A stretch of DNA of 32,000 nucleotides from Mucisphaera calidilacus (lineage in GTDB: Bacteria > Planctomycetota > Phycisphaerae > Phycisphaerales > Phycisphaeraceae), in NCBI RefSeq assembly GCF_007748075.1, contig NZ_CP036280.1:2910001-2942000 (forward strand). Direction: 5' to 3'. Each line of letters starts with the position of its first letter. Positions within the stretch are counted from its first letter, which is position 1. Made by a program: the position numbers and the translations under genes. The notes beneath the pieces are model-generated. The model was not told the DNA's origin, searched no databases, and was given only the letters and a program-made list of their open reading frames with translations. Below are positions 11,025 through 32,000 of this stretch, piece by piece.

Positions 11025-11060
11025 GGGAACAGTCTCGGATCAAATATATTTTATGTCAAG

Positions 11061-11078
11061 TATCTTGATATCAAGATA
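11061..11078. promoter_or_regulatory. perfect 18-bp palindrome TATCTTGATATCAAGATA, candidate MarR operator
   Basis: It sits in the 94-bp AT-rich divergent region between marR (start 11024) and the 311-aa ORF (start 11119). Flanking bases G11060 and G11079 end the symmetry. Confidence 0.5.
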
Positions 11079-11118
11079 GTTTCGGGTACACTCCGTAATA
11101 CCCGCCACGGAGAACACC

Positions 11119-12054: not shown

Positions 12055-13024
12055 ACGCCCCCGCGTCTCGCTCGCGAACCCACCCGCGCGACGGGCCCAC
12101 ACGCGCCTCGTACGCCGTCCACAAGTCATACCAGTACGCCAGAAAACGGTACGGCCGATACCCCTCGTAATGCGCCTCGATCAGCGGATCCAGCTCCTTG
12201 TCGTTCGAAGGCCGCTCGATCCCCTTCACCGCGCAGTAATGGCGATACGTCTCCGAATCGATCGCCAGAAAATCGTAATGCCCCAGCAGCTGACAGATGT
12301 TCGCCGCCGCGTAAGGCCCAATGCCGTTCAACCCCCGCAACGCCTCATACACCTCCCCCGCCGTCCGCTCAGGCGACGCATACCACCCCGCATCAATCGA
12401 CCCGTCCAGAAACCCACGCGCCACGTCAACAATCCGCTGCGCCCGATACCCCACCTTCACGTGCTCCTTCAGCCGCGCCGCACCATACCGACGCACCTGC
12501 CCGGGCGAAGGAAACGCCCCCCGACCCACACGCTCCACCAGCAACCGGTTCATCCGAATCGTCGACGTCCACGTCGTGTTGCACCCCGTGATCGTCTTCA
12601 CGATGTCCTCCCACAACGTAGGCGACCGAAACAACCGCCCGAACCCCCGCCGACGCGCCCCCGCGTGCATCGCGTACCACCCCGTAAAATCCTCATCCAC
12701 ACGCAACACCCGACCCAGCCTCTGCTTAACCCGAACCCCCTCTCCCCGATCCAGCTTCCGATGACACGCCACCACCAGCGGATCCCCTTGATCCCCCTGC
12801 GACACCCGAATCGCAATCAGTGAACTATCTTCAGTCGCCAGCGTCGTCTCAAAAACCTGACGCTCCGCATCCCAGTGATTCGGGGACAACAGAAAATACC
12901 CGTACGAACACACCGCCTCGGCCAAATCGAAATCCGAGGGGACCGAGAGCCTCAACCTGCTGCCACGCATCCGTTCTGCCGCCATATTCCGCTCGCCATT
13001 CCGTCTACAAGCCAGATCATTCAC
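12032..13024 (-). CDS. HhH-GPD superfamily DNA glycosylase (AlkA-like)
   Basis: Helix-hairpin-helix LRGLNGIGPYAAANICQLLG followed by Asp (AIDSETYRHY). The upstream segment WEDIVKTITGCNTTW is typical of AlkA-like proteins. The start is uncertain, with alternatives at 12985 and 12970. The 3' end overlaps the neighbouring gene by 23 bp. Confidence 0.7.
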   Translation of the reverse strand: MNDLACRRNGERNMAAERMRGSRLRLSVPSDFDLAEAVCSYGYFLLSPNHWDAERQVFETTLATEDSSLIAIRVSQGDQGDPLVVACHRKLDRGEGVRVKQRLGRVLRVDEDFTGWYAMHAGARRRGFGRLFRSPTLWEDIVKTITGCNTTWTSTIRMNRLLVERVGRGAFPSPGQVRRYGAARLKEHVKVGYRAQRIVDVARGFLDGSIDAGWYASPERTAGEVYEALRGLNGIGPYAAANICQLLGHYDFLAIDSETYRHYCAVKGIERPSNDKELDPLIEAHYEGYRPYRFLAYWYDLWTAYEARVGPSRGWVRERDAGAFTASKLR

Positions 13025-13209
13025 CCCAAATCAGGGAAACCCCCGATAATCGGATACACTATGCTGTCACAACAGGCATGGCCCTGTCGGGATATCCGAA
13101 CCCTATGTCATCCACACGCACACGCCGAAGTTCGGCCCGCGCGATAGGCCTCAAAACCTTCGCCAACCGTCGAGACTGAGTCGCAGTTCGTACAGGAACA
13201 AACAGACAC

Positions 13210-14094
13210 ATGGACAGCTTCTTCAAGCACTTCCCCAGCTTCCGTTGGCCCATCAGCGCCACCCGATCCTCCCACCCCTCTCTCCGAGGCGGACTCGACT
13301 GGACCGTCATCATCGGCCTCGGCTGGCTCCACGTCGTCGCCATCGCAGCACCCTGGACCTTCACCTGGTCCGGCCTCGCCTGGCTACTCGTCCTCTGGTA
13401 CCTCACCGGCGGCCTCGGCATCGTCCTCTGCTACCACCGACTCCTCACACACCGATCCTTCGCATGCCCGCGATGGCTCGAATACACCCTCACCTTCCTC
13501 GCCTGCGCCGCCTGGCAGGGACGCCCCTCACACTGGGTCGGCACCCACCGCATCCACCACAAACACTCCGACGACGAAGGCGACCCCCACACGCCCCAGC
13601 ACGGCTTCACCTGGTCTCACATCTTCTGGACCATGTTCAAAGAACCCGAGGGCATGAAGGCCGACGACTTCGCCAAAGACCTCCAACGCGACGCCGGCAT
13701 GCGCTGGTTCGACAAGTGGTTCGTCGTCCCCCAGTTCATCATCGCACTCTTCCTCATCGCCCTTGGCTACGCGCTGGGCGGAACCGAACTCGCCATCTCC
13801 TGGTTCGTCTGGGGCGTCGCCCTGCGTACCGTCTGGGTCTGGCACGTCACCTGGTTCGTCAACTCCGCCACACACACCTGGGGATACCGAAACTTCAAGA
13901 CAGGCGAACACTCCACCAACCTCTGGTGGGTCGCCATCCTCAGCTTCGGCGAGGGCTGGCACAACAACCACCATGCACACCCACGATCCGCGACCCATGG
14001 CATGCGCTGGTTCGAAATCGATCCCACCAACTGGCTCATCGCCCTGCTCGAAGCCACCGGGCTCGCCTGGAACGTCAAACGAACCACCCTCTGA
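13210..14094 (+). CDS. membrane fatty-acid (delta-9 type) desaturase
   Basis: Three His boxes are present: HRLLTH, HRIHHKH and HNNHHAH. TM helices sit in the expected positions. Confidence 0.9.
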   Translation: MDSFFKHFPSFRWPISATRSSHPSLRGGLDWTVIIGLGWLHVVAIAAPWTFTWSGLAWLLVLWYLTGGLGIVLCYHRLLTHRSFACPRWLEYTLTFLACAAWQGRPSHWVGTHRIHHKHSDDEGDPHTPQHGFTWSHIFWTMFKEPEGMKADDFAKDLQRDAGMRWFDKWFVVPQFIIALFLIALGYALGGTELAISWFVWGVALRTVWVWHVTWFVNSATHTWGYRNFKTGEHSTNLWWVAILSFGEGWHNNHHAHPRSATHGMRWFEIDPTNWLIALLEATGLAWNVKRTTL

Positions 14095-14152
14095 TTCCCG
14101 ACGCACCACACCACCGGCAGGGACAGGCCCGCCAAGCTATCTTGTCCCGACG

Positions 14153-15679
14153 ATGAGTGATCCCAAACCCGACACACCCCTGCCCACACTCGACCAACGC
14201 TCCACAGGCGTTCTCCTCCACATCACATCCCTCGACGGCCACTACGGCATCGGGGACCTCGGCCGGCCCGCACGACACCTCGTCCACTGGCTCAAAGCCG
14301 CGGGCGTCAGCTGGTGGCAGGTCCTCCCCATCACCCCGCCCAGCGCCGAAAACTCGCCCTACGAGTCCATCTCCGCCTTCGCCGGATGGCACGCCCTCAT
14401 CAGCCTCGAAGACCTCGTCGCCGACGGACTCCTCCCCAAAAAAGCACTCGCCGATATCCCCAAACTGCCTGAAGACCGCGCCGACTACCAGGCCGCTCAG
14501 GACATCCGCACCCGACTCCTCCGCCAGGCACACCAGAGCTTCACACCCAGCGACGACTACCACGACTTCCTCAAAAACCAGGCCGACTGGCTCGACGACT
14601 GGGCACTCCACGAAGCCATCCGAAACACCCGCAACGGCAAGCCCTGGCACACGTGGCCCGACGACCTCCGGCTCCGACACAAACACCACATCGAAACCGC
14701 TCGACACGACCTCGCCGACGACATCGACTTCCACAAGTTCGTCCAGTACGTCTTCGACAAACAGTGGAACGCGCTCCGCGAGATCTGCCGCGACGCCGGC
14801 ATCGGACTCATCGGCGACGTCCCCATCTTCGTCGGCATGGACGCCGCCGACGTATGGGCCCACCGCGCACTCTTCGACCTCGACCGCGACGGACGACCCA
14901 AGGCCATCTCAGGCGTCCCGCCCGACATGTTCAGCGAGACCGGGCAGGTCTGGGACCACCCCCTCTACAACTGGACCAACCACGAGAAAACCGACTACGC
15001 CTGGTGGGCCGCCCGCATGCGCCACACCCTCAACCAGTTCGACGCCGTACGCATCGACCACTTCCTCGGCTTCCTCCGCTGCTGGGCCATCCCCGCCGAC
15101 ACCCGCCACGCACCCGACGGCAAGTGGCGCAAAGGACCCGCCAAGTCCTTCTTCGACGCCGTCGAACAGCAACTCGGCACCATGGCCGTCATCGCCGAGG
15201 ACCTCGGCGACGTCACCCAGCAGGCCATCGACCTCCGCGACGACCTCGGATACCCCGGCATGATGGTCACGCAGTTCGGCTTCGGCGAAGACCACGCCCA
15301 CCACGCACCCCACAACCACCCCAGAAACTGCGTCGCCTACACCGGCACCCACGACAACAACACCCTCAGCGGCTTCTACCACGAGTCCTCCTCCGAAACC
15401 CGGAAACGCATCCTCCTCTACACCGGCAAAGAGGCCGACTCCGTCGCCGAAGACCTCACACGCATCACCCTCCTCAGTCAGGCCAACATCGCCGTCATCC
15501 CGCCCCAGGACCTCCTCGGCCTCGACACCCACCACCGCATGAACATCCCCGGCAAAAAAGTCGGCAACTGGACCTGGCGACTACCCCCCGGAAGCCTCAC
15601 CGCCAGCCACGCCAAAAAAATACACCGACTCAACCTCCTCGCCGGACGAACCCAACCCCTCCCCGCCACCGAATCCTGA
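14153..15679 (+). CDS. malQ: 4-alpha-glucanotransferase (amylomaltase, GH77)
   Basis: GVLLHITSL..YGIGDLG, RIDHFLGF, IAEDLG and YTGTHDNNT are GH77 signatures. The start is set at ATG 14153. The track ORF from 13763 is an artefactual extension overlapping the desaturase. Confidence 0.9.
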   Translation: MSDPKPDTPLPTLDQRSTGVLLHITSLDGHYGIGDLGRPARHLVHWLKAAGVSWWQVLPITPPSAENSPYESISAFAGWHALISLEDLVADGLLPKKALADIPKLPEDRADYQAAQDIRTRLLRQAHQSFTPSDDYHDFLKNQADWLDDWALHEAIRNTRNGKPWHTWPDDLRLRHKHHIETARHDLADDIDFHKFVQYVFDKQWNALREICRDAGIGLIGDVPIFVGMDAADVWAHRALFDLDRDGRPKAISGVPPDMFSETGQVWDHPLYNWTNHEKTDYAWWAARMRHTLNQFDAVRIDHFLGFLRCWAIPADTRHAPDGKWRKGPAKSFFDAVEQQLGTMAVIAEDLGDVTQQAIDLRDDLGYPGMMVTQFGFGEDHAHHAPHNHPRNCVAYTGTHDNNTLSGFYHESSSETRKRILLYTGKEADSVAEDLTRITLLSQANIAVIPPQDLLGLDTHHRMNIPGKKVGNWTWRLPPGSLTASHAKKIHRLNLLAGRTQPLPATES

Positions 15680-15703
15680 ACCCCTCACCTCAGCTCCGCG
15701 CTG

Positions 15704-16744
15704 CTACCGCGGTTGTCGATCTCTGATCGCACGCTCCACCGCGTCCGCCAGCACGCCCGCACCCTCACGCACCACGTCCGCCACCGGCAAACCCAACGCC
15801 TCACCCACACGCCGCTTCTCCGCCTCGAACGCTGCGTCATCCAGCCGCCGGCTGTTCATCCCCACACCCACCACCCGGCACGGATGCATCTCGCTCGCCA
15901 GCGACTCGTACAACGCCCGGTACGTCTCGAGTGATTTCAACGCGATGTGATCCAGACCCTTCACGTGGGTCCGGCCCGCCTCGTAACACAAAATCAAACC
16001 GTCCGGCCGACAGCCGTGCAGCAACCCGAGCGTCACCGACGAGTAACTCGGGTGCAGGATCGATCCCTGACCCTCAATACACATCACGTCATGATGCTGG
16101 TTCCGCAGCACCAGCTTCTCCGCCGCACCGTTGATGAAGTCCGCCACCACCGTATCAATAGGCGTCCCGTCACCCTCCACCATGATCCCCGTCTGGCCTG
16201 TTGCCACAAACTTGCTGCTCAGCCCACGCCCCGCCAACGCACGCGACACCTCCACCGAAACAATCATCTTCCCCACCGAACAGTCCTGCCCCACCGTGTG
16301 CAGCCGGTAGCACCCATCCTCAAAACCCCGGCCCTCCGCCACCTCGTGCTCGTGGTTCTTCCGCACGTCCCACAGGTGCGCCCCGCTGTGCTCCGCCGCC
16401 GCAGCGAGATCCGCATCGTCCGACAGAAACTCGTGCAGCCCCGAGATCACCGTCATCCCACGCTCCACCGCCTTGAGCAGGTGCCCACGCATCACCTCGG
16501 GCAGCTTCCCGCCATGCACCCCGATCCCGATGATCAGCGTGTCCGCGTCCGGCACATCACCCAGATCACCCACCACCGGCACATCACCCCCCACGCCCAG
16601 CAGACCGCCCGCCGTCTTCCCCACCTCCTGCGTGTCCAGCAACGCCACCACCTCTTCCGCCCGGTAACGCAATACGCTGTACGCCGTCTTGGCGTAATAA
16701 ATGCTGGTATGACCCTCAGTTAGCAGGACAATGCGTTGCGCCAC
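15704..16744 (-). CDS. DUF1611 family protein (DgcN-like, putative D-glutamate N-acetyltransferase)
   Basis: RIVLLTEGH...AKTA..LRY...VVALLD...DTLIIGIGVHGGKLP...ISGLHEFLSDD matches the DUF1611 layout as remembered. Confidence 0.75.
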   Translation of the reverse strand: MAQRIVLLTEGHTSIYYAKTAYSVLRYRAEEVVALLDTQEVGKTAGGLLGVGGDVPVVGDLGDVPDADTLIIGIGVHGGKLPEVMRGHLLKAVERGMTVISGLHEFLSDDADLAAAAEHSGAHLWDVRKNHEHEVAEGRGFEDGCYRLHTVGQDCSVGKMIVSVEVSRALAGRGLSSKFVATGQTGIMVEGDGTPIDTVVADFINGAAEKLVLRNQHHDVMCIEGQGSILHPSYSSVTLGLLHGCRPDGLILCYEAGRTHVKGLDHIALKSLETYRALYESLASEMHPCRVVGVGMNSRRLDDAAFEAEKRRVGEALGLPVADVVREGAGVLADAVERAIRDRQPR

Positions 16745-16855
16745 GTGGCCGCTCCTTCGTCATTTCTTCCGCTTTCGCAGACAATTTCCGCAGACAGACC
16801 CTGAATATTATGTAAATTATACTCGGCCTGCACACCCACAGCAGAACGAGTGATT

Positions 16856-17767
16856 ATGGTTCAGCAACCCACCCCCGCCGCCGACCCCGTTGTCTACTAC
16901 AACGGCGAATTCATCCCCAGCTCACACGCCAACGTCTCCGTCGAGGAACGAGGAACGCTCTTCGGCGAAGGCGTCTACGAAGTCACCCGCGTCTACAACG
17001 CACACCCCTTCGCACTCGACGAGCACCTCGAACGGCTCCTCAACAGCCTCCGTGGCATCGGCCTCAAGGACCCCCAAACCCTCGCCGCCGCCCGCGAACT
17101 CAAGCCCGCCTCCGCACAACTCCTCGAGATCCACAACCTCGCCGAGGCCCTCGTCTACTGGCAGATCACCCGCGGACCCGCCCAGCCCCGATCCTTCCTC
17201 TACCAGCCCAACACCCGACCCTCCGTCCTCGCCATCGCCTACCCCACGCAACCCATCAACACCGCCGGCCCGCCACCCACCACCACCGCGACCCTCCTCC
17301 CCGACGACCGCTGGGCCAACTGCTGGATCAAGTCCACCATGCTCCTGCCCAACAACCTCGCCTACAACCAGGCCCGCGAAGCCGGCTTCGGCGCCGCACT
17401 CCTCCAACGCCACGGCCTCATCACCGAGGCCTCCAACGCCAACGCCATGTTCGTCCGCGACGGCAAGATCCTCACACACCCCGACGACGGCAAGATTCTC
17501 AATGGCATCACACGCCAGATCGTCCTCAACCACGCTCGCAACCTCAACATCCCCGTCGCCGAACAACCCCTCCCCATCGCCGAACTCAACACCGTCGACG
17601 AGGCCTTCCTCACCGGCACCACCACCCACGTCACCCCCGTCCTCGCCATCGACGACCAGCCCGTCGCCGACGCCAAACCCGGACCCGTCGCCCTGCAACT
17701 CCACCACACCCTCATGAACGACATCAACACCCGCTGCCGCATCACCACCCACGCCACCACACCCTGA
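16856..17767 (+). CDS. dat: class IV PLP aminotransferase, D-amino-acid (D-alanine) aminotransferase-like
   Basis: YYNGEF...VSVEERGTLFGEGVYEV, WIKSTMLLPN (catalytic Lys context) and EASNANAMFV..GKILTHP...ILNGITRQ parallel Bacillus Dat. ATG 16856 is preferred over GTG 16850. Confidence 0.7.
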   Translation: MVQQPTPAADPVVYYNGEFIPSSHANVSVEERGTLFGEGVYEVTRVYNAHPFALDEHLERLLNSLRGIGLKDPQTLAAARELKPASAQLLEIHNLAEALVYWQITRGPAQPRSFLYQPNTRPSVLAIAYPTQPINTAGPPPTTTATLLPDDRWANCWIKSTMLLPNNLAYNQAREAGFGAALLQRHGLITEASNANAMFVRDGKILTHPDDGKILNGITRQIVLNHARNLNIPVAEQPLPIAELNTVDEAFLTGTTTHVTPVLAIDDQPVADAKPGPVALQLHHTLMNDINTRCRITTHATTP

Positions 17768-22554: not shown

Positions 22555-24093
22555 ATGCACAACACACGCCACGCGATCCTGATCACCCTCGCCTGCTGCG
22601 CCGCCACCCACGCGCAATGGAACGCCCACGTCGCCGGCATCCCCCAACCCCAGGTCGGCGGCACACCCTTCCCGCGCTCCGCCGACGTCGCCGTCGACCC
22701 CACCAACGGTAGCGTCTGGATCGCTACCGACGACGGCGGCGCCTCCGGAACTTACGGGCCCGCAACCCTCACACGCTTCACCAACAACACCTTCACACCC
22801 CACACGCTCCCGGACCCCGTCTTCGGTATCGAACTCGACATCGACGACTACGGCACACCCACCTACGTCGCCCGCGCACCCGGAAACTTCGTCACCTCAG
22901 GCGTCTACATCGAACCCGCCGACGTCATCGAACAGACCCAACAGCCCATCCTCCAGACCCCCGCCTTCCCCGTCATCGACTACGCCGTGGACCCCCAGGG
23001 CATCCCCGCACTCGTCAACTTCAACCAGAGCGGCTTCAACTTCACCCGGTACGACGTCGCCAGCAACGACTGGTCAACCACACCCCACTTGTTCACCAAC
23101 CCCGAACTCCAACCCTCCTTCCGATCCCCGCCCGCCTTCGACTTCGACCCCCAGGGACGCCCCGTCGTCGCCTACCTCTCCGTCCAGAACACCGCCGTTG
23201 TCCTCCGACACGAACCGCTCCACGGCTGGCGACCCATCTCGTCCAACAAGCCCGCCAACAACCTCTACGGCATCAGCCTCGCCTTCTACGCCGACGGATC
23301 GCCCCTCTTCGCCTACGGCAACCAGCAGGGCCAGATCGTCGTCACCTCACTCGACGAATACCTCATCCCCACCACACAGATCGTCGACCAGGCCACCACA
23401 CGCCTCCTCCCCGACGCCCTCGCCGTCAACCCCGCCACCGACAGCCCCAGCATCGCCTACACCGCCGCGCCCTCACCCTTCAGCGACCTCATGCTCGCCA
23501 CCCTCCAACCCACCGGCTGGAGCACCACCCAACTCCCCTTCTCCGCCGGACGCGCCAACCTCGCCTTCAACGACGAGGGCACCCCCTACATCGGCGCCCT
23601 GATCACACGCCCCGCCGGACAGGACTTCGTCCAGAGCTACGCCGTCATCACCAACGACCCCGACCTCCACCTCCCAGGCGACTTCAACCACGACGGCATC
23701 TACTCCGCCGACGACCTCGACCACTACGCCAACAACCCCACCGACCTCGAAACCTACGACCTCGACCGCAACGGCGAGATCGACCCCAACGACCACCTCG
23801 TCTGGCTACGCATCTACAACCTCACCAGCCCAGGCGACATCAATCTCGACGGCAGCGTCAACCTCCTCGACCTCTCCATACTCGCCGCCAACTTCGACCA
23901 GCCCGGCTCCTACGCCCAAGGCGACCTCAACCTCGACGCCTCCATCAACCTCCTCGACCTCTCCATCCTCGCCAGCAACTTCACCGCCAACACCATCCCG
24001 ACCCCCGCCACCGCATCACTCATGACCCTCGCACTCCTCGCACTCCTCGCACTCCACCGCAATCAACCAAAACAACCCGAACCCCAACCCTGA
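22555..24093 (+). CDS. secreted protein with dockerin-like Ca-binding repeats and a PEP-CTERM-like anchor
   Basis: Signal peptide ILITLACCAATHA. EF-hand/dockerin loops DFNHDGIYSADDL, DLDRNGEIDPND, GDINLDGSVNLLDLSILAANF and GDLNLDASINLLDLSILASNF. C-terminal IPTPATASLMTLALLALLALHR. Confidence 0.75.
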   Translation: MHNTRHAILITLACCAATHAQWNAHVAGIPQPQVGGTPFPRSADVAVDPTNGSVWIATDDGGASGTYGPATLTRFTNNTFTPHTLPDPVFGIELDIDDYGTPTYVARAPGNFVTSGVYIEPADVIEQTQQPILQTPAFPVIDYAVDPQGIPALVNFNQSGFNFTRYDVASNDWSTTPHLFTNPELQPSFRSPPAFDFDPQGRPVVAYLSVQNTAVVLRHEPLHGWRPISSNKPANNLYGISLAFYADGSPLFAYGNQQGQIVVTSLDEYLIPTTQIVDQATTRLLPDALAVNPATDSPSIAYTAAPSPFSDLMLATLQPTGWSTTQLPFSAGRANLAFNDEGTPYIGALITRPAGQDFVQSYAVITNDPDLHLPGDFNHDGIYSADDLDHYANNPTDLETYDLDRNGEIDPNDHLVWLRIYNLTSPGDINLDGSVNLLDLSILAANFDQPGSYAQGDLNLDASINLLDLSILASNFTANTIPTPATASLMTLALLALLALHRNQPKQPEPQP

Positions 24094-24485: not shown

Positions 24486-24577
24486 GACACGCATGTCCGA
24501 TGTCACGCTGAATTCATAAACCATCTTCCACGGGGACCCATCAACCCGCCGGGACACAGCAACACAAGGAGATAGCC

Positions 24578-25405
24578 ATGAGAAGCCTCACGCTTACAGC
24601 ACTCGCCGCAGCAGCAATCGCTACCGCCGCTTCCGCCGATCCATACAACGACACCTACCCCATGATGAGTAGCGAAGAAGCCGCCACCACGACCTTCAAC
24701 CTCCGCCCTCAGGTCGGAATCACCGACTGGACCTGGCAAGGCACAACGCTGATCGAATCATGGCTTGTTTACGGGGCCTACGACAACGAACCTGCCACGC
24801 CACCCAACAACGGCATCAGAAACTTCTACACCTGGCCAGGTGCAGAGCCGTACCGCTCTGCCAGCAGTTCCAACGGCAGACACTTCGCCGATTCCTCTCC
24901 CTCCAATATCTACTTCGAACATACCCATGCGATCTGGGCAGATATCTATAACAGCGAATCTCACGATTGGGACAGCAGTGTTCGGATTGGTCACGACACC
25001 AGCTGGTACTTCGACACGGACGACCCCGAGCACCCCGAGCCAACCCTCGAAGAGCACACGCACCAGGCCTTCCAGGTCATCACCCCGACAACCGCGTCGC
25101 AATGGACACTGATCGATGACCTCTCCTTCGCGCTCAACAACGAGAGCGGCCAGATCATGTTCGAGATACGCCTGAGCGATCATTACCATGCATCAGTCTT
25201 CGGATTTAACCAGACGGGCAGCCCGAATGACTCTCAGCACGCAACGCCGAACCCCGGCGACAGCCTGATCATGACATGGGATACCGAGTACACGGGCGTA
25301 TCCAATGAGTATCAGGCTGCCTTTGTGCAGGCATATTACAGCGTCCCAGAGCCTTCAGCCATCATGCTGTGTCTTGCTCTCTCAGGAATCCTTGCCCGCC
25401 AGTAG
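24578..25405 (+). CDS. PEP-CTERM-anchored secreted protein
   Basis: Signal peptide MRSLTLTALAAAAIATAASA. C-terminal VPEPSAIMLCLALSGILARQ. Confidence 0.7.
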   Translation: MRSLTLTALAAAAIATAASADPYNDTYPMMSSEEAATTTFNLRPQVGITDWTWQGTTLIESWLVYGAYDNEPATPPNNGIRNFYTWPGAEPYRSASSSNGRHFADSSPSNIYFEHTHAIWADIYNSESHDWDSSVRIGHDTSWYFDTDDPEHPEPTLEEHTHQAFQVITPTTASQWTLIDDLSFALNNESGQIMFEIRLSDHYHASVFGFNQTGSPNDSQHATPNPGDSLIMTWDTEYTGVSNEYQAAFVQAYYSVPEPSAIMLCLALSGILARQ

Positions 25406-25520
25406 TCATCACGACAGACCGTCATCGGCAAACGCCTAAACCGAACAGTTACCAGATGTCCGAGCACGTAGTTGTGAAGGCACATAGATATCTCTTGCCC
25501 CACCAGAGGAGAACGCAGCA

Positions 25521-27730
25521 ATGAAGTCCAGAAACCGCAGCCATATCAACCCGCTACTGCCATCACTATGCCTTGCGACTGCAGCAATGACGATGGCACT
25601 TACGCCACAGCGCGCAACTGCCACCGATCTTATCCTTGGAGATATTCCTCCGTTCGAGACTCTAATGTTGTTTGGGGGATTGGATTATTCCTACAACAAT
25701 GGCGTCATAGGCGAATCGTACTTCGCGGCACTATTCGTATCGGGAGACAATACAAGTGCATCATTCGCAGGTAATTTTGAAGTAGGAGTACATGAGTCGG
25801 GATTGGTACTTGTCGATGACGGGGCAGTCCTGCGACTAGCATCGGGAATGGCGATTGGAGCCGATGTATCGGGGTATACGAGCAGAGCATCCGCTTCGGG
25901 CAGCGGCACAAAGTTTGTGGTAGCGATTGGCGAGACGTACGTCGGCAAGAATGCAGGCGGCAAGCTGGCCATCGAGGACCACGTCGCAATGCACGCACGA
26001 AATCTCTATATCGGTCACGCCAGCGGCAGTCACGGAGAAATGGTAGTCAAGTCATCAGCTACAGTATCCGCAGTTGGCACCAATAATAATTATATCTACG
26101 CGGCTCCTCCGGCACGGGAGAACTGACCGTCAATTCGGGTGCCTCGCTGATCGCAACACGCTTATATGTCGGGGATAAGGCGACCGGCGATGGTGAAGCC
26201 ACCGTATCGGGCTAGAATTCGTCAATCACCGTGGAAGGCTTCACAAGAGTCGGTGTTCAAGGCAATGCGAAGCTCTCAATCCTCGACGGCGCTACCGTTA
26301 TCAATGAATCAATTATGCATGATATCGTTGTTGGATCAGGGCCAGGTTCGAACGGCGTTGTCGTTGTATCGGGCAGTGTATATGACCCGAGCACTGGCGG
26401 ATACGCGGATTCAACTCTGGCCAGCAATCGCCATATCTATCTTGGTACCAGCAGTTCCACCGCACACATGTCGGTAGAAAACGGAGCCAATGTCTCCGCA
26501 TCTCGTCTCTATGTCCGTCCGCAGAGCACGCTCTCAGGTGCGGGCGGCACCGTGCTCGGCAGAACAGAAGTCTCAGGCAAGATCGATCCGGGTGCCTATG
26601 CCATCGAGGATGATGCCGTTGTAAGCACGACGGGCGAATTGAGTATCGCAGGTGACTGCATCATGGAAGCCGGCAGCGCTTTGCGTATCGATATCGCTTC
26701 CTCAGGCACCGATAGCATCAACGTAACCCCGAAAGCCAGCATGTCTGGGGACCTCACACTATCTAAGAGTAATCCCATTCTGGATATTAACTTCCCCAAC
26801 CAGTACGTGCCCGCCCCGGGGCAGAAATACGAGGTTGCCAGTTATACAGGCGATCTCACAGGCGTCTTCTCCAATGCACCGCTTCCCGGCGTCCCGATCG
26901 ACACGACGCACAATAATGAAATCGCCTTGATGATCGAGTACGACACGGACAACAAAGATATTAATCTGACCACACACTACATCGGCGACGCCAACATGGA
27001 TAACGCCGTGAACCTGCTTGACCTCTCAACGCTGGCAAGCAACTTTGATACGACCCCCGCTACATGGTCGATGGGCAACTTCAATACGGACAATACAGTC
27101 GATCTACTCGACCTCAGTGCTCTGGCCACGAACTTCGGTAAAGGCCAGACATCCCAATCACAGGCACCTGAGTCCTTCTCCTCCATCGGCTCGCCCGCGA
27201 CACTCAGCCTTGATGGCGACCTCACCGTCTCCGACGACGGCGGCATCACCACACCCGACCTCACCGGATACACCACCTACACACTCACCGCCGCCGCACT
27301 CACCGACAGCATCGACGCTCTCGAAATCCTGATCGAATCCGATGACCTGAATCAGGAATATCTCGGCTACACCATCTTCTCCAACAACAACGTCTTCTTG
27401 CAGCAAGCCGGCATCAACCCCTTACGTGACTCACAACTGCTCTTCGCCGAAGGCCTGTTGTCCGTCCAGGCCGATGAATCAGACACACTGCTGACTGCCG
27501 CCTTCGCCGGCTTCACACCCTTCACTACACGCGACATCGCCCAGATCGTCATCCCCGACGACGCCACCGCGACTTACGAGATCCAGGCCGTCATCGACGA
27601 CGAACTCTACATCGTCACCGGCACCCTCGGCACAGCAGCACCCCTGACTCTCATCCCCATCCCCGAACCCTCCTCACTCGCGGTTCTCGCCCTCACCGGC
27701 CTAGCCCTCGTCCGTCGTCGCGCCGCCTGA
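25521..27730 (+). pseudogene. disrupted adhesin-like protein gene (beta-helix repeats + dockerin-like repeats + PEP-CTERM)
   Basis: Frame 0 (25521-26126) and frame 2 (26090-27730) together encode one continuous repeat pattern: ...SSATVSAVGTNNNYIYA/GSSGTGELTVNSGASLIATRLYVGDKATGDGEATVSG*NSSITVEGFTRVGVQGNAKLSILDGATV. This needs a 1-nt frameshift near 26099-26102 and contains an in-frame TAG at 26213-26215. The 3' part encodes GDANMDNAVNLLDLSTLASNF, GNFNTDNTVDLLDLSALATNF and IPIPEPSSLAVLALTGLALVRRRAA. Confidence 0.65.
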
Positions 27731-27788: not shown

Positions 27789-27904
27789 CATGCCTCAACG
27801 CTGCCATCATCACTCCATCCCAAAACCGATACTTTCTTTCACCCCCACCCCCTGATTCCGGGGGTCGCGCGCACAAGGACGGTAATTGTGCGCACGTCGT
27901 GACC

Positions 27905-27995
27905 AAAAACAGGCCCTTTTTGGACCAAAACGCTCCAAAACGGACGAAAACGAACCCAAAACGCTCGAAAACGACCCGAAACGAACCCGAAAAAG
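27905..27995. repeat. helically phased A-tract / degenerate 10-11-bp tandem repeat (C[CG]AAAACGnn)
   Basis: A-tracts start at 27905, 27927, 27937, 27947, 27958, 27968, 27979 and 27990. Spacings from 27927 onward are 10, 10, 11, 10, 11 and 11 nt. AAAACG recurs five times, plus AAACG and AAAAAG. Confidence 0.75.
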
Positions 27996-28186
27996 TGTAA
28001 ATTCCTGCAAAGTCGTCAGACTGTGCGCGCCTCGCCCCTCAAACCACACCCCCACCGACGAACTCCCGCCACCCAACACCCACCCCGTGCCCCGTCCGGT
28101 AAGCACGGCCTGTTCAACGCACCCGAACACCACCAAGCCAACCCTAACCCCTTAACTCCGTTATAGGGCGGCTTTTGCAACCGCAC

Positions 28187-28224
28187 TTGACGTTCGGTTT
28201 GGATTTGGGTAACGTATACCGAAC
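28187..28224 (+). promoter_or_regulatory. candidate promoter (TTGACG-N17-TAACGT) overlapped by inverted repeat GTTCGGT-N19-ACCGAAC
   Basis: TTGACG at 28187-28192 and TAACGT at 28210-28215. The inverted-repeat arms are 28192-28198 and 28218-28224. The site is about 120 nt upstream of the ORF that precedes lexA. Confidence 0.3.
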
Positions 28225-28343
28225 AGATTGGCCGATAGAAGTTCAAGACCCGTTACACCCCGCGACGAAAAGAGACTCAGCAACAGCCGGATACCCCAAC
28301 ATATTGGGATCAACCCCCCGGCAAACGCTAGATGGGATAACAC

Positions 28344-28937
28344 ATGACCTCACCCGTACTCATGCTCGGACCCGGCGGCGACTACACCACCGCCTACGAA
28401 GCCCGCCCGGGCGGCCGTCTCGCACGCTCCCAGGCCAACGCCGACGCCAATCAGGGCGACAGCCAGCAACCCGGCTACCAGAGACAGCCCAAACGCCAGC
28501 CACACGACCGCTTCGAGCCTTCTAACCAACTGATCAACAAGCGATTAGCGCATGCCGCGCACCAGCCCGACTTCGAGGAGATCACCCTCCTCGCCGCCGC
28601 CTCGGCATGGCTCACCGAACAGATGAACCGCGTCGCCGAGTCCAGCGCCCTGCTCCAACGCCTCCGCGGCCTGCTCGCTCACGACAGCCTCACCCATCAC
28701 ACCCGTTCCCTGACCGTGATCCCGGAGATCGATCATGAATCTTACGCCCAAGCAGCTACACATCCTCAGTCGTATCAGAGACATACGTCTGGCACGCGGC
28801 TATTCGCCGACGATGCAGGAACTCGCCGACGAGCTCGGCGTCTCCAAGGTCACCGTTTTCGAGCACGTCGAAGCGCTCATCAAGAAGGGGGCCTTGAGGC
28901 GGCAGCCGAACAAGGCGCGCTCTTTGGAGCTGTGTGA
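28344..28937 (+). CDS. hypothetical protein upstream of and overlapping lexA
   Basis: The 197-aa ORF shows strong C-ending codon bias only from 28344 to about 28735. The last 203 nt overlap lexA in another frame and lack that bias. No family recognised, and the true 3' end is uncertain. Confidence 0.45.
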   Translation: MTSPVLMLGPGGDYTTAYEARPGGRLARSQANADANQGDSQQPGYQRQPKRQPHDRFEPSNQLINKRLAHAAHQPDFEEITLLAAASAWLTEQMNRVAESSALLQRLRGLLAHDSLTHHTRSLTVIPEIDHESYAQAATHPQSYQRHTSGTRLFADDAGTRRRARRLQGHRFRARRSAHQEGGLEAAAEQGALFGAV

Positions 28938-29355
28938 GGAAGTCGACCTGCCCGACGAGACGACCGGCCTCAAGCTCCCGCTGGTCGGCACGATCGCCGC
29001 CGGCTCGCCCATCGAGGCGGTCGAGCAACGCGAGCATCTCGATCTGGAGTCGATGTTTACGCCTCCCGGCTCCGCGGGCAACACCTTTGTCCTGCAGGTG
29101 CGTGGCGACTCGATGATCGACGAGCACATCGCCGAGGGCGACTACGTCATCTGCGAGAAGCGCAACGCGGCGCGGTCGGGCCAGACCGTCGTGGCGCTGC
29201 TCGACTCGGGCGAAGCGACGCTCAAGAAGCTCTACCACGAGTCGGGCAACAAGATCCGGCTGCAGCCCGCGAACGACAAGTACGAGCCGATCATCGTCGA
29301 GGCGGGGCGGGTGCAGATCCAGGGGGTCGCCATCGGCGTCGTGCGGTCTTACTGA
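28735..29355 (+). CDS. lexA: LexA repressor (SOS regulator, S24 peptidase)
   Basis: Winged HTH LTPKQLHILSRIRD..GYSPTMQELADELGVSKVTVFEHVEALIKKGALRR. Ala-Gly cleavage site VGTIAAGSPIEA. Ser/Lys dyad context VRGDSMID and ATLKKL. An in-frame TGA lies 18 nt upstream of the ATG, and GGAG is the RBS. Confidence 0.9.
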   Translation: MNLTPKQLHILSRIRDIRLARGYSPTMQELADELGVSKVTVFEHVEALIKKGALRRQPNKARSLELCEEVDLPDETTGLKLPLVGTIAAGSPIEAVEQREHLDLESMFTPPGSAGNTFVLQVRGDSMIDEHIAEGDYVICEKRNAARSGQTVVALLDSGEATLKKLYHESGNKIRLQPANDKYEPIIVEAGRVQIQGVAIGVVRSY

Positions 29356-29405
29356 GCCGGCCCTGTTGAAACGCCGGGGGCGGGGTTCATTTATGATGCA
29401 GGGCT

Positions 29406-30413
29406 ATGGAAGACAGGCCGATCGGTTTGCTGGCGGGGGGCGGGCGGCTGCCCATCATCGAGGCGGAGGGGATCCGCGCGATGGGGCGGAAGGTGGCCTG
29501 CGTGGGGTTTACGGGGCAGTATGACCCGGCGTTGCCTGAGCTGTGCGATTACTTCGAGACGGCAGGGATCGTTCGGATCAACCGGTGGCTGAAGCTGATG
29601 AAGCGGTGGGACGTGGAGCAGGCGGTCATGGTGGGGTACGTGCGTAAGACGCGTATGTATCAGCCGTTGCGGATCGTCCAGAACCTGCCGGACAGCAGGG
29701 CGATCCGTCTCTGGTATCGTGTGTTGCGTAATGACAAGCGTTCGCAGCTGATGCTGCGGGTGCTGGCGGACGAGTTGCACGATAACGGAGTCGACCTGAT
29801 CGACACCACAGCCTTCATCAAGCGTCATATTGCCGAACTGGGCGTGATGACCAGGACCCAGCCGACCGCGGAGCAGCAGGCGGATATTGATTTCGCTGCG
29901 CCGATTCTGGCGCGGATGAACGATCTGGATATCGGTCAGGCGTTGGCGATCAAGGAGCGTGACGTGATCGCGGTGGAGGCGATCGAGGGCACGGACCGGA
30001 TGATCAAGCGGGCGGGGATCCTGTGCAAGGCGGGCGGGTGGACGCTGATCAAGGGGACGAAGCCGACGAAGGACCTGCGGTTCGACGTCCCGACGGTGGG
30101 GGTCTCGACGATCAACAACATGAAGTCTTCGAAGGCGGCGTGCCTGGTGATCACGGCGGGGAACGTGATCATGATCGACAAGGAGGACGTGCTGGCGGCG
30201 GCGGACGCGGCGGGGATCTGCATTGTGGGGATCGAGCCGGTGGAGGGGACGGAGCTGCCGATGGAGACGCTGGCGAAGTACGCCGAGTCGATGGACGAGC
30301 CGATCGAGGCGTTGCAGGGGAGTCTGGTGAAGCCTGTGGGGGAGGAGGCTGATGCCGAGGCCGAGGAGGGGGAGCGTTTTGAGTCAGGCGGATCGGCGCC
30401 GGCTCAGGGGTAG
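29406..30413 (+). CDS. lpxI: UDP-2,3-diacylglucosamine diphosphatase LpxI (DUF1009) with an acidic C-terminal tail
   Basis: IGLLAGGGRLP at the N-terminus. LDIGQALAIKERDVIAVEAIEGTDRMIKRAG and RFDVPTVGVSTI parallel Caulobacter LpxI. Codons are G-ending. Confidence 0.85.
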   Translation: MEDRPIGLLAGGGRLPIIEAEGIRAMGRKVACVGFTGQYDPALPELCDYFETAGIVRINRWLKLMKRWDVEQAVMVGYVRKTRMYQPLRIVQNLPDSRAIRLWYRVLRNDKRSQLMLRVLADELHDNGVDLIDTTAFIKRHIAELGVMTRTQPTAEQQADIDFAAPILARMNDLDIGQALAIKERDVIAVEAIEGTDRMIKRAGILCKAGGWTLIKGTKPTKDLRFDVPTVGVSTINNMKSSKAACLVITAGNVIMIDKEDVLAAADAAGICIVGIEPVEGTELPMETLAKYAESMDEPIEALQGSLVKPVGEEADAEAEEGERFESGGSAPAQG

Positions 30414-32000
30414 GAGCGTCAGGAGTATCGTGACCGCGGCGGGTTCGGGGATGGCGGTGTTGCCGAAGTGGCTGGCGAGGATGGAGAGGTCGAGGAGGTC
30501 GACGGTGTTGTCGCCGTTGAAGTCGCCCTGGGTGAAGCCAAAGACTCCGGGCAGGCCGAAGTTGGCGGCAAGGATGGAGAGGTCGTTCATGTCGACGCTG
30601 CCGTCGAGGTTGGCGTCGGCTGGGAGGAGGGTTGCGCTGAAATAGGTGACTTCGCCTGTGGCCATCAGGCTGGAGGTGTCGAAGGTGCCGGGTCCGTTGT
30701 AGAGGATGGTGTCGAAGGCTCCGGTGATGTCGGCGTTGGTCCAGTCGAAGAGCTGGTAGGTGGTGATCTGGAGACTTTGCAGGTCGAGGCCATCGTCGAA
30801 TTCGAGGAGGAGGGTTCCGGCGAGGGCGACGGGGGTGTCGGGGTCGGCGAACTGGATGATGGAGCCCCACTGGTTGTCTTCGAAGACGAGGCGGAGGGTG
30901 GCGGCGGGGTCGATGGTGAGTTCCTGCTCGATGGTGATGGGGATGGCGGGTTCGGATTCATCCAGGGGGTTGTCGTCCCAGATGCGTAGGGTTTCGCTGC
31001 TTTGCAGGATCAGGCCTTTGACGCGGCCATCGGGGTGGATGGCGTTGCGGACGCCGGCCAGGCGTTGACTCATCCTGTTTCCTGATGTCCTGTCTATGTA
31101 GTAATGACTTCTGCGCAGATCCGAAGCCGTGAAGTCGGTGTTATGCAGGTTTGCATGGTTAAATACGACTGACTGCAGGTTTAGATTGCTCAGGTCCCAG
31201 TCGGTCAGGTCGTTGTAGCCCAAGTCGATCCCGGCGAGATTTTTGTTCTTGTAGCTGGCGGTGCTGTAGAGCTGGCCTGCGGTGAATCCGGAATCGGTGG
31301 TTCTATAGAAGTCCGCTCCGGTGATGAGGGCGTCGGACAGGTCGGTGTTGGTGAGGTTGGCGTAGTCGAGATTCGCGTCGGTGAGGTTGGCGTTGTTCAG
31401 GTCGGTGTTGGTGAGGTTGGCGTAGTCCAAATCTGTGTCGGTGAGGTTCTGGCCGGCGAGGTTCCATCCGGTCAGGTCGTTGGAGTACAATTTGATCCCG
31501 GTGAGGTTCTTGTTCTTGTAGCTGGCGGTGCTGTAGAGCTGGGTGGCGGTGAATCCGGAATCGGTGGTTGAGCCGAAATTTGCCTCGGTGATGATGGCGT
31601 CGGACAGGTCGGTGTTGGTGAGGGTGGCGTTGTATAAATATGCGTCGGTGAGGTTGGCGTTGTTCAGGTCGGTGTTGGTGAGGTTCTGGCCGGCGAGGTT
31701 CCATCCGGTCAAGTCGTTGTAGCCCAAGTCGATCCCGGTGAGGTTCTTGTTCTTGTAGCTGGCGGTGCTGTAGAGCTGGGCTGCGGTGAAACCGGAATCG
31801 GTGGTTCTATAGAAGTCCGCTCCGGTGATGAGGGCGTCGGACAGGTCGGTGTTGGCCAGGTTGGCGAGGCCGAAGTAGGCGTCGGTCAGGTTCTGGCCGG
31901 CGAGGTTCCAGGCCGTGAGATCGTTGTACCGCAAGTCGATCCCGGCGAGATTTTTGTTCTTGTAGCTGGCGGTGCTGTAGAGCTGGCCTGCGGTGAATCC
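30384..32000 (-). CDS. pentapeptide-repeat surface protein with dockerin-like repeats and PEP-CTERM anchor (N-terminus beyond the right edge)
   Basis: The frame is open to position 32000; the track M at 31934 is a TTG inside repeat ...GIDLRYNDL. Modules are repeated: ADFYRTTDSGFTA.QLYSTASYKNKNL.GIDLGYNDLTGWNLAGQNLT.TDL. The C-terminus has DANLDGSVDMNDLSILAANF, GDFNGDNTVDLLDLSILASHF and IPEPAAVTILLTLLPLSRRRSA. Confidence 0.8.
   Translation of the reverse strand, partial: GFTAGQLYSTASYKNKNLAGIDLRYNDLTAWNLAGQNLTDAYFGLANLANTDLSDALITGADFYRTTDSGFTAAQLYSTASYKNKNLTGIDLGYNDLTGWNLAGQNLTNTDLNNANLTDAYLYNATLTNTDLSDAIITEANFGSTTDSGFTATQLYSTASYKNKNLTGIKLYSNDLTGWNLAGQNLTDTDLDYANLTNTDLNNANLTDANLDYANLTNTDLSDALITGADFYRTTDSGFTAGQLYSTASYKNKNLAGIDLGYNDLTDWDLSNLNLQSVVFNHANLHNTDFTASDLRRSHYYIDRTSGNRMSQRLAGVRNAIHPDGRVKGLILQSSETLRIWDDNPLDESEPAIPITIEQELTIDPAATLRLVFEDNQWGSIIQFADPDTPVALAGTLLLEFDDGLDLQSLQITTYQLFDWTNADITGAFDTILYNGPGTFDTSSLMATGEVTYFSATLLPADANLDGSVDMNDLSILAANFGLPGVFGFTQGDFNGDNTVDLLDLSILASHFGNTAIPEPAAVTILLTLLPLSRRRSA

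Follow-up and report, generated by a model that had tools for sequence, protein, structure and literature searches.

Why does the strand composition of the Mucisphaera calidilacus Pan265 chromosome (3,486,541 bp) reverse its sign across lexA? The window analysed here, a stretch of 32,000 nt containing lexA, had been reported in a preliminary description to change from a C/A-rich to a G/T-rich plus strand at this gene, and a replication origin, an inversion and an assembly junction were offered as possible causes.

Strand composition and features around lexA

The sign change is real. All six of the 60-base counts of C and G on which it had first been noticed proved exact on recounting. Measured in 1-kb windows, GC skew runs between −0.20 and −0.46 across 1–24.5 kb, is about 0 within a low-GC island (25–27 kb), −0.33 at 27–28 kb and −0.02 at 28.5–29.5 kb; to the right of 29.5 kb it lies between +0.29 and +0.36. 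AT skew changes sign in the opposite sense. The keto excess, calculated as ((G−C)+(T−A))/bp in 200-bp bins, is −0.2 to −0.3 until 28,800, lies between −0.03 and +0.03 at 28,801–29,400 and is then positive. The cumulative minimum falls at 28,881 for G−C and at 29,293 for keto excess.

The codon-usage flip claimed in the preliminary description is equally evident in per-gene GC3 skew. In the sense direction this is −0.57 to −0.84 in plus-strand genes and +0.38 to +0.68 in minus-strand genes on the left, −0.03 in lexA, +0.42 in lpxI and −0.62 in the minus-strand pentapeptide-repeat gene. When referred to the plus strand, GC3 skew is −0.38 to −0.84 in left-side genes of either strand; the third-codon-position skew, of ±0.4–0.84, tracks the side of the flip and not the strand of the gene. 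The features of the window are as follows.

1–28,800, no strand: C+A-rich plus strand, the right end of an 84.5-kb domain (genome 2,854,501–2,939,000), its magnitude rising toward the jump
24,500–27,730, plus: low-GC island (53–56%) with almost zero skew; ORFs 24,578–25,405, 25,521–26,126 and 26,231–27,730
27,826–28,045, plus: copy of a repeated intergenic element of about 215 bp (nhmmer and cmsearch matches, alignment, composition)
27,867–27,895, plus: inverted box pair GCGCGCACAA ... TTGTGCGCAC, the best-conserved part of the element's 5′ half
27,903–27,923, plus: second inverted repeat, CCAAAAA-N7-TTTTTGG (alignments, folding)
27,925–27,993, plus: six to seven direct repeats in 10–11 bp phase, consensus CCAAAACGnn, GC 49% (Tandem Repeats Finder, alignments)
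28,022–28,030, plus: 3′ terminal box TGTGCGCGC, inverted with respect to the 5′ box, with a conserved TGCAAAGTnGTCA just before it
28,345–28,734, plus: small ORF preceding lexA; its protein sequence is conserved at the same place in a congeneric genome
28,735–29,355, plus: lexA (Peptidase_S24 and LexA DNA-binding domains), GC3 skew −0.03
28,800–29,400, no strand: transition zone in which composition changes sign (200-bp bins, cumulative minima), about 0.8–1.4 kb 3′ of the element
29,406–30,413, plus: lpxI (LpxI_N and LpxI_C domains), GC3 skew +0.39/+0.42
29,400–32,000, no strand: G+T-rich plus strand, the start of a 29.5-kb domain (genome 2,939,001–2,968,500)
30,384–32,000, minus: pentapeptide-repeat protein gene, extending to window coordinate 33,098

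The small ORF at 28,345–28,734 is without a Pfam match, and a scan of the window from 24 to 32 kb against Rfam gave zero matches at E values up to 1. In the low-GC island, which the congeneric genome G001 lacks ahead of lexA, the ORF at 26,231–27,730 has a weak PEP-CTERM match. The 3′ end of the pentapeptide-repeat gene carries a segment of about 170 nt that is found again near many of the other jumps described below, there too at the 3′ end of genes for secreted proteins.

A genome-wide sawtooth independent of gene strand

The jump at lexA measures 0.47–0.48 with 8-kb flanks, in the top 0.8% among random genome positions. It is a full-amplitude jump, equivalent to at least 30 others. Across the genome there are at least 31 sharp negative-to-positive jumps with a mean spacing of 112 kb, at which the plus strand turns from C+A-rich to G+T-rich within about 1 kb. 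At a threshold of 0.30 with 8-kb flanks, 25 sharp jumps are upward and none downward; the ratio is 22:1 with 4-kb flanks and 22:0 with 12-kb flanks. After each jump the skew declines gradually and is on average zero midway to the next, which gives the profile its sawtooth form. Intervals classed as short, middle and long have coinciding profiles when scaled, with zero reached at 0.45–0.55 of the interval, which is at about 30, 47 and 78 kb, respectively. Averaging over whole teeth revealed no residual two-arm trend in Pan265, and cumulative gene orientation has a weak global trend with a minimum near 3.1–3.2 Mb and a maximum near 0.9 Mb. No description of this pattern for any bacterium was found in the literature searched, although there may be an earlier one, since subscription journals lay mostly outside the scope of the search.

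These data bear directly on whether the lexA flip is the single replication origin (oriC) of the chromosome, as its origin-type sign and full amplitude might suggest. Cumulative GC skew over the whole genome is lowest at 617,845 and highest at 1,984,558; the lexA site, at about 2,939,000, belongs to a set of local minima numbering at least 31. The preliminary description had held that a minimum elsewhere, with only a local blip here, would count against an origin. The minimum is indeed elsewhere, and the simple oriC reading fails for that reason; the feature at lexA, however, is a jump of full amplitude and not a blip. The 30 other equal jumps are also difficult to reconcile with a unique origin, and the site is unlinked to dnaA (paralogs at 394 and 3,276,233) and dnaN (149,820), both of which are absent from the window, as had been stated. 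A DnaA-box cluster is lacking as well. Boxes of the TTATCCACA type number five perfect and 19 relaxed occurrences genome-wide, with no cluster in the genome and none at the site, although this consensus is of the E. coli type and may not be that of the lineage. The absence of a convincing cluster, previously noted for the window, extends in this sense to the whole genome. It is very improbable that the flip represents oriC.

Genome-wide, position explains most of the variance in per-gene GC3 skew (R2 0.81) and strand little of it (R2 0.08), and the GC3 skews of neighbouring genes on opposite strands are correlated (r=+0.75). The sawtooth is a position-dependent mutational bias, mostly at silent sites, and not a property of genes. 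Transcription or codon usage in co-oriented gene blocks converging at lexA could be invoked for the flip, as window genes lie mostly on the plus strand to the left and mostly on the minus strand to the right. Minority-strand genes nevertheless bear the sign of their domain, and strand explains 8% of GC3 skew against 81% for position. In addition, the majority sense strand is C+A-rich, the opposite of the known transcription-linked bias. Such a cause for the flip is scarcely credible.

Gene orientation has a limited relation to the sawtooth. Within about 10 kb of jumps, protein genes point weakly toward the jump. The preliminary description had remarked that most genes left of lexA would be head-on to a fork leaving an origin there; this is a real effect, but it amounts to weak convergence confined to the neighbourhood of jumps. 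The tRNA genes favour the G+T-rich strand by 23:12, and the rRNA operon, rpoB and the S10 operon are located in zero-skew zones. Accessory and lineage-specific DNA clusters at jumps, with rRNA, rpoB and ribosomal-protein operons far away.

The repeated element and related genomes

The element upstream of lexA comprises inverted GCGCACA boxes, a hairpin and direct repeats phased at 10–11 bp, with a local dip in GC content (54.5%, compared with 64% for the genome). Its 17 loci in the genome all coincide with skew up-jumps. At the lexA site and the 16 other loci the jump lies 0.5–1 kb 3′ of the element, an offset also seen in the 17-element average. Boxes of the GCGCACA type are about 7-fold enriched within 3 kb of jumps, and clusters of three or more such boxes are found at jumps in 11 of 11 cases. 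In 14 of the 31 jumps no element was detected, the HMM matches there being marginal (E 0.09 or worse).

The box pair at 27,867–27,895 is predicted to fold as a hairpin in single-stranded DNA, and single-strand folding of the element as a whole is slightly better than that of shuffled sequence (z = −1.78). In the CCAAAAA-N7-TTTTTGG repeat, pairing is preserved in diverged copies by changes in both arms, while in one sub-family of the element GTTAACAG-type repeats occupy the position of the phased array. Miniature inverted-repeat transposable elements, which have terminal inverted repeats and target-site duplications and occur as many near-identical copies, were considered as a candidate identity: the element has inverted boxes at its termini and seven copies are 93–98% identical, and no target-site duplication was seen at element copies. 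The architecture is kept across genera with 47% and 64% GC, which suggests that the element is functional rather than recently spread.

A comparison of the element with 72,556 plasmids and 50,697 phage records gave zero matches. No rep-like or initiator gene was found adjoining the elements, and the flanking genes are unrelated among copies. Homology searches of the flanks identified no common gene or cargo; apart from compositional noise, they yielded only the repeated segment that encodes the C-terminal part in secreted-protein genes. Two candidate identities were rejected: an iteron-type plasmid or phage origin, as the phased repeats are present but have neither an adjacent Rep gene nor a plasmid or phage match, and the promoter of one gene family, as the neighbours are mostly convergent genes.

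An element model trained on Pan265 only was applied to three other genomes, where 17 of 18 matches lie at a negative-to-positive change; the link between element and jump holds in four genomes. The same sawtooth is present in four independently assembled genomes, and in ZRK32 all eight box clusters in a 400-kb stretch sit at jumps of that genome. Run against 800 kb of Poriferisphaera sp. WC338, a genome that does have jumps, and against the L001, L011 and L021 lexA loci, the model gave no match, and the lexA–lpxI spacer of L011 contains no phased repeat array.

The adjacency and orientation of lexA and lpxI are kept in five relatives (L001, L009, L011 and L021 among them). In G001 the ortholog of lexA is 90% identical but has a GC3 skew of −0.65, compared with −0.03 in Pan265, and that of lpxI, 81% identical and in the same orientation, has −0.70, compared with +0.39. 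The element and the jump at lexA are both present in Pan265 and both absent from G001. Orthologs in collinear blocks differ in skew sign where jump positions differ, and a 6-kb segment inverted between Pan265 and G001 shows the local sign in either genome. Skew is determined by present position.

This comparison also disposes of an inversion breakpoint or assembly mis-join almost entirely. Gene order relative to G001 does break on both sides of the unit formed by the upstream ORF, lexA and lpxI, at about 28.17 kb and about 30.3 kb in the window, as such a junction might produce, but the sign changes inside the conserved lexA–lpxI unit. Each inversion makes one up-jump and one down-jump, so that random inversions would yield both types equally, yet the count is 25:0 (p=6e-8); sharp down-jumps are missing, and inverted segments re-equilibrate to the local sign. 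A mis-join is further contradicted by the pattern shared among the four independently assembled genomes.

The polarity of the jumps can be calibrated within the family. WC338 has a classic two-arm skew: the negative-to-positive change adjoins its best dnaA (3.96 Mb), and the opposite change lies near the antipode, at 1.85–1.9 Mb; up-jumps of the Pan265 type are superimposed on this global pattern. Since this two-arm skew is linked to dnaA, it identifies the leading strand as the G+T-rich one, which gives the jumps origin polarity. The rule from which an origin-type sign had been assigned to the lexA flip thus applies in this family, and the assignment stands. A replication terminus at the flip was rejected, the sign being negative-to-positive and the usual polarity being confirmed in WC338.

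Proposed initiation at many sites, and competing explanations

The element may mark a local site of bidirectional initiation, one of many on the chromosome, a proposal for which we consider the chances to be even. The lexA flip would then be one tooth edge of the genome-wide strand-composition sawtooth, and the window would hold one of many local replication initiation sites, with DNA synthesis starting at the element in both directions. Forks from adjacent sites would meet around the midpoint, and the lagging-strand template (the leading-strand sequence) would turn G+T-rich, as it does in ordinary bacteria, though far more extremely in this chromosome. If neighbouring forks moved at equal speed, the zero crossing would fall at the midpoint whatever the interval length, as is observed. 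That replication forks are the cause and the element is the initiation site are inferences from the composition of these genomes, as would be any choice of the protein acting there.

Sharp jumps of origin sign only, the polarity calibrated in WC338, the dependence of skew on present position and not on gene strand, the coincidence of elements and box clusters with jumps, the success of the element model in other genomes, the joint absence of element and jump at lexA in G001 and the lean of tRNA genes to the G+T-rich strand are all in favour of many-site initiation. Against it, no bacterium is known with many origins per chromosome (PMC10331603, PMC7174701). The orientation of protein genes does not follow the proposed forks, and none of the rRNA operon, rpoB and the S10 operon lies on a leading strand. 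The sign change lies 0.5–1 kb off the element, often within a gene; 14 of 31 jumps, and those of WC338, are without a detectable element, and there is neither an E. coli-type DnaA-box cluster nor an initiator gene beside the elements. Ordinary replication skews are much smaller than the amplitude seen here, where GC3 skew reaches 0.84, so that an extra factor would be needed.

The reverse arrangement has to be considered, in which the elements would be fixed sites of fork convergence (polar barriers, with the inverted boxes as a trap), initiation between them would be diffuse and mutational polarity reversed. The weak convergence of genes on jumps, the inverted boxes in the element and the presence of accessory DNA at jumps with rRNA, rpoB and ribosomal-protein operons distant, as around a terminus, could all be accommodated in this way. 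In WC338, however, polarity is the usual one, negative-to-positive at dnaA, diffuse initiation gives no reason for a zero crossing at the midpoint, and tRNA genes lean the opposite way. We regard fork convergence as improbable.

Alternatively, the element could start some other two-sided, strand-asymmetric DNA transaction that does not duplicate the chromosome, for example local over-replication, strand-displacement or repair synthesis, or the action of an unknown translocating machine. One strand would be exposed on each side, as far as the meeting with the neighbour's transaction. The same descriptive evidence fits (up-jumps, offset, midpoint and relatives). Moreover, the amplitude is nearer that of genomes with long-lived single strands than that of ordinary bacterial replication, gene orientation ignores the sawtooth and, in WC338, a normal dnaA-linked two-arm programme coexists with it. 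The midpoint rule, on the other hand, is explained most simply by colliding forks, and we know of no such process in bacteria. Two-ended break repair in particular, under the standard RecBCD model, would be expected to direct forks toward the site and give the opposite sign. An explanation of this kind is unlikely, but deserves to be taken seriously beside many-site initiation.

Several known systems resemble the sawtooth in part. Upward skew jumps at initiation zones underlie the concept of N-domains in mammalian genomes, and all the N-domain-type features were found here, namely sharp jumps upward only with gradual return, a sign change at the midpoint and independence from gene strand. Pan265 differs in being a bacterium, in having domains of about 100 kb (about 1 Mb in mammals), in an amplitude roughly ten times larger and in jumps at a defined, conserved element of about 215 bp; the likeness lies in composition. 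Fork-polarity gradients are reported for mammalian genomes (PMC3320577, PMC4729899). The multi-origin archaea Sulfolobus, Haloferax and Haloarcula share a circular prokaryotic chromosome and, on the proposal made here, initiation at several defined sites with termination where forks collide between them. They have two to four origins, bound by Orc1/Cdc6, and weak skews (PMC3020120, PMC4595724, PMC3936714), whereas Pan265 has at least 31 candidate sites and DnaA-type initiators (two paralogs).

The lexA site resembles a bacterial oriC in its negative-to-positive GC and keto skew, local GC dip and repeated short boxes ending in CACA. It differs in being non-unique, off the global skew minimum, away from dnaA and dnaN and without TTATCCACA-type boxes, with the sign change 0.5–1 kb to one side of the element. 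Iteron plasmid origins and ParR-type centromeres also have helically phased direct repeats, flanking inverted repeats and a less GC-rich region. Origin iterons are usually 17–22 bp, whereas the Pan265 repeats are 10–11 bp and have no adjacent rep or par gene and no plasmid or phage match. In vertebrate mitochondria the silent-site amplitude is similar and one strand is G+T-rich in both GC and AT skew, an asymmetry expected from deamination of a strand that stays single for long; there, however, the sign is the same around the genome, whereas in Pan265 it alternates and is zero midway between sites. Cyanobacteria may have irregular GC skew without a two-arm pattern (PMC7198777). The absence of a two-arm profile is shared with Pan265, but those profiles are weak and irregular, and that of Pan265 is very strong, regular and anchored to an element.

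Whatever the cause, three aspects of the bias are new and unexplained: its size, up to a GC3 skew of 0.84, which to our knowledge is exceptional among cellular genomes; its turnover, which is faster than that of gene order; and its tie to a conserved 215-bp element. For this clade, skew-based origin finders, assembly checks and peak-to-trough growth estimates will mislead, and the dependence of composition on position will bias models of codon usage and phylogeny.

Possession of a single origin per chromosome is regarded as a defining distinction of Bacteria from Archaea and Eukarya. On the sequence evidence, it is slightly less than an even prospect that Mucisphaera and Poriferisphaera (Phycisphaeraceae, Planctomycetota) replicate from dozens of element-marked sites; WC338 would have these in addition to a classic dnaA-linked origin, while in Mucisphaera they would have taken the place of any visible two-arm pattern. 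Some 30 sequence-defined origin-like sites in the cultured Pan265 would make the one-origin rule directly testable. If many-site initiation is true, natural multi-origin chromosomes would have their first bacterial example, and sequence-defined origins would be gained and lost between congeneric species.

Strand-skew change at lexA

Along the + strand of the window, GC skew is -0.20 to -0.46 over 1-24.5 kb, about zero at 25-27 kb (a low-GC island), -0.33 at 27-28 kb, close to zero at about 29 kb and, past 29.5 kb, +0.29 to +0.36 (1-kb windows); AT skew is its mirror image. At 200-bp resolution the sign change spans 28,800-29,400, within lexA (28,735-29,355), and the cumulative minima fall at 28,881 for G-C and at 29,293 for keto excess (G+T minus A+C). 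The base counts around the flip in the preliminary description are all exact on recount, and the codon flip that it claimed is borne out, as third-position skew tracks the side of the flip, not gene strand (window genes called crudely from GC3). To the left, sense GC3 skew is -0.57 to -0.84 in plus-strand genes and +0.38 to +0.68 in minus-strand genes; lexA itself has -0.03; to the right, the value is +0.42 in lpxI (+) and -0.62 in the pentapeptide gene (-). Per-gene extremes in the genome reach ±0.84 for GC3 skew and ±0.9 for AT3 skew, an amplitude comparable to that of vertebrate mitochondria, not to that of other bacteria.

The low-GC island (24500-27730; 53-56% GC, almost skew-free) contains three ORFs (275, 201 and 499 aa), among which the sole Pfam match is a weak PEP-CTERM motif, and is missing upstream of lexA in a congeneric genome. 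An inverted GTTCGG...CCGAAC pair within 28,180-28,240, ahead of the following small ORF, might be a LexA operator.

Window 28345-28734: small ORF directly upstream of lexA, without a family match; its protein sequence is conserved at the equivalent position of the congeneric genome

The window spans positions 2,910,001-2,942,000 of a single contig of 3,486,541 bp, and the closest relatives of its LexA are in Mucisphaera, Poriferisphaera and other Phycisphaeraceae. The genome of Mucisphaera calidilacus Pan265 is reported as 3,486,541 bp (CP036280; PMC8882080). The flip had been proposed as a candidate replication origin; as the single origin of the replicon it is not tenable, the whole-genome cumulative GC skew being lowest at 617,845 and highest at 1,984,558. 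The sign of the skew switches dozens of times across the genome (50-kb bins). The flip was rejected both as a unique oriC and as a terminus. Pan265 encodes two full-length dnaA paralogs (394-867 and 3,276,233-3,276,715), neither adjoining dnaN (149,820), and clusters of TTATCCACA-type boxes were found nowhere in its genome. Two full-length DnaA paralogs, each with an AAA+ domain and DNA-binding domain IV, occur in all five Phycisphaeraceae genomes examined; DnaA_N is detectable only in the weaker-scoring paralog.

A genome-wide sawtooth set by position

The skew forms a regular sawtooth over the Pan265 genome (4-kb text profile). In each tooth the + strand passes from C+A-rich to G+T-rich in about 1 kb, then drifts back via zero, to be C+A-rich again when the next jump comes. 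With 8-kb flanks, sharp up-jumps number 28, 25, 15 and 11 at thresholds of 0.25, 0.30, 0.35 and 0.40, and sharp down-jumps 4, 0, 0 and 0; the asymmetry persists with 4-kb and 12-kb flanks (25:0, binomial p = 6e-8). The 31 listed up-jumps, among which the window flip is one of the stronger (0.48), have a mean spacing of 112 kb (median 103 kb). When scaled, the profiles of short, middle and long intervals coincide, with the zero crossing at the midpoint. Fairly sharp downward steps are few in the genome; one of them (0.25) lies at 2,968,400-2,969,300, some 30 kb beyond the window jump on its right, and adjoins a tRNA-Gly gene (2,969,246). It closes the positive domain of the window after just 29.5 kb, with about 104 kb of zero skew beyond, and may be the edge of a recent insertion or rearrangement.

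Among 2,394 called genes, GC3 skew referred to the + strand is predicted by that of four neighbours with an R2 of 0.81 and by the gene's own strand with an R2 of 0.08, and neighbouring genes on opposite strands are positively correlated (r=+0.75). The pattern thus cannot be put down to how blocks of genes are transcribed or which codons they prefer; the strand bias is positional and lies mostly at silent sites.

The preliminary description had also offered an inversion or assembly junction. lexA and lpxI are neighbours in the same orientation in five relatives, and the flip is therefore inside a conserved unit. Moreover, an inversion or mis-oriented contig would yield one sharp jump of each sign, and so the one-sided jumps, with no sharp down-jump at 0.30, exclude either as the general cause; the flip itself was rejected as an inversion breakpoint. 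In G001, a congeneric Mucisphaera MAG, LexA and LpxI are 90% and 81% identical to those of Pan265, and GC3 skew is -0.65 in lexA and -0.70 in lpxI, against -0.03 and +0.39 in Pan265. Along some 130 kb of collinear sequence, jumps occupy different orthologous positions in the two genomes and the stretches between have opposite signs, and a 6-kb segment that is inverted between the genomes matches its surroundings in sign in each. The skew is thus reset over and over according to where the DNA now lies. Across the 400 kb of G001 sampled, the four strong jumps all lie within homology gaps specific to G001.

Between lexA and lpxI, G001 carries about 7 kb of skew-free DNA (10621-17555 of its lexA locus L001; G001:C2 ~904,930-911,860). 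Some 4.4 kb inside this insert (L001 15040-15171) the final 43 codons of lexA occur again, at 74-75% identity; the insert looks like an integrative element targeting the lexA 3' end.

The repeated intergenic element

Word enrichment around the 31 jumps yielded an element of about 215 bp, whose loci were collected by iterated nhmmer seeded with the window copy (27,826-28,045).

Element part: inverted box pair, GCGCGCACAA / TTGTGCGCAC
Element part: second hairpin, preserved in diverged copies by changes in both arms
Element part: 6-7 direct repeats, CCAAAACGnn, in a 10-11 bp phase
Element part: 3' box, TGTGCGCGC, inverted with respect to the first box
Pan265 536,929-537,141 and 3,319,233-3,319,437: sub-family with GTTAACAG-type repeats instead of CCAAAACG repeats, in the same 10-11-bp phase

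Of 17 loci in Pan265, 16 lie at most 2.7 kb from a listed jump, where chance would give about 5% per locus, and for one the closest is 8 kb away. Read in the direction of the element, the sign changes 0.5-1 kb past the 3' end in 16 of the 17; mean keto excess is -0.23 upstream, rises to -0.15 over the first 0.5 kb and to -0.01 over the next (0.5-1 kb), and is +0.15 to +0.23 farther out. All 11 clusters of at least three boxes are at listed jumps. The element has 54.5% GC and its repeat array 49% (genome, 64%), and the sub-family retains the hairpin as well as the flanking boxes (GCGCACA). Identity among seven of the copies is 93-98%, and their flanks share no homology. Genes beside the element are mostly convergent. 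At the lexA locus, element and jump are both present in Pan265 and both absent from G001. The element was rejected as an iteron plasmid origin with a Rep gene.

The low-GC island of the window lies directly 5' of its element copy, and comparable skew-free patches are found at distances of 1-3.5 kb on the 5' side of several others. The copy at 1,175,613-1,175,849 directly adjoins a tRNA-Glu gene; the change point is 154 bp away. A repeated coding segment of ~60-170 nt, lying at the 3' end of genes for secreted proteins with dockerin-like or PEP-CTERM-type C-termini, recurs within a few kb of many jumps, the genes often converging on the jump (copies considered: those near jumps).

Window 23935-24040 and 30440-30630: repeated secreted-protein 3' segment
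Near jumps 339.7k, 444.8k, 769.1k, 838.1k, 1176.0k, 2307.9k and others: repeated secreted-protein 3' segment

Relatives, polarity and possible initiation sites

The sawtooth is clean in 400 kb of G001 (five up-jumps, no down-jumps). Poriferisphaera strain ZRK32 has teeth of about 30 kb, and Poriferisphaera sp. WC338 has teeth upon a positive baseline, one jump adjoining its lexA. R1, a model of the element built from Pan265 sequence only, has matches in 6 of 101 family genomes. At 17 of 18 matches outside regions already examined (from G001/G089, P. corsica KS4 and ZRK32) the skew changes from negative (left flank, -0.08 to -0.34) to positive (right flank, +0.07 to +0.33), mostly 0-2 kb 3' of the element. 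All eight box clusters in 400 kb of ZRK32 coincide with jumps, and the element has the same architecture there at 47% GC.

WC338 has a classic two-arm skew, with a mean keto excess of +0.115 at 1-400 kb, +0.127 at 900-1100 kb and -0.125 at 2.9-3.1 Mb. The change is positive-to-negative near 1.85-1.9 Mb and negative-to-positive at about 3.965 Mb, adjoining the best dnaA (3,961,692). The family thus has the usual G+T-rich leading strand, which gives the sawtooth jumps the sign of origins, in agreement with the polarity originally assigned to the flip.

Processes that leave neighbouring sites at equal speed and stop on meeting would place the zero crossing exactly at the midpoint. To our knowledge, replication forks are the sole established process with such a geometry and this strand bias. 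On these grounds the element can be read as marking a putative bidirectional initiation site, the window flip being one such site, a reading for which we see the balance as even. The gradual, non-step return could reflect variable firing, or evolutionary averaging over moving origins, jump positions differing between Pan265 and G001. The amplitude would require an extra cause, for instance inefficient repair of bases that have been deaminated in exposed single-stranded DNA.

Against initiation, protein genes show no co-orientation with the forks proposed; within 10 kb of the jumps they even point weakly at them. tRNA genes, by contrast, lean 23:12 to co-orientation. Also against it, the element was undetected at 14 of the 31 listed Pan265 jumps, and in 800 kb searched of WC338, though that genome has jumps. 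The single rRNA operon (16S, 2,495,019-2,496,528), rpoB (2,335,958) and the S10 operon (L2, 2,017,022) occupy zones where skew is near zero, distant from up-jumps, the first two where skew changes from positive to negative.

Reviews state a single-origin rule for bacteria (PMC10331603, PMC7174701), and full-text literature searches turned up no account of such a strand-skew pattern in bacteria. If the element does mark initiation sites, the Mucisphaera pattern would work like mammalian replication N-domains and archaeal chromosomes with several origins.
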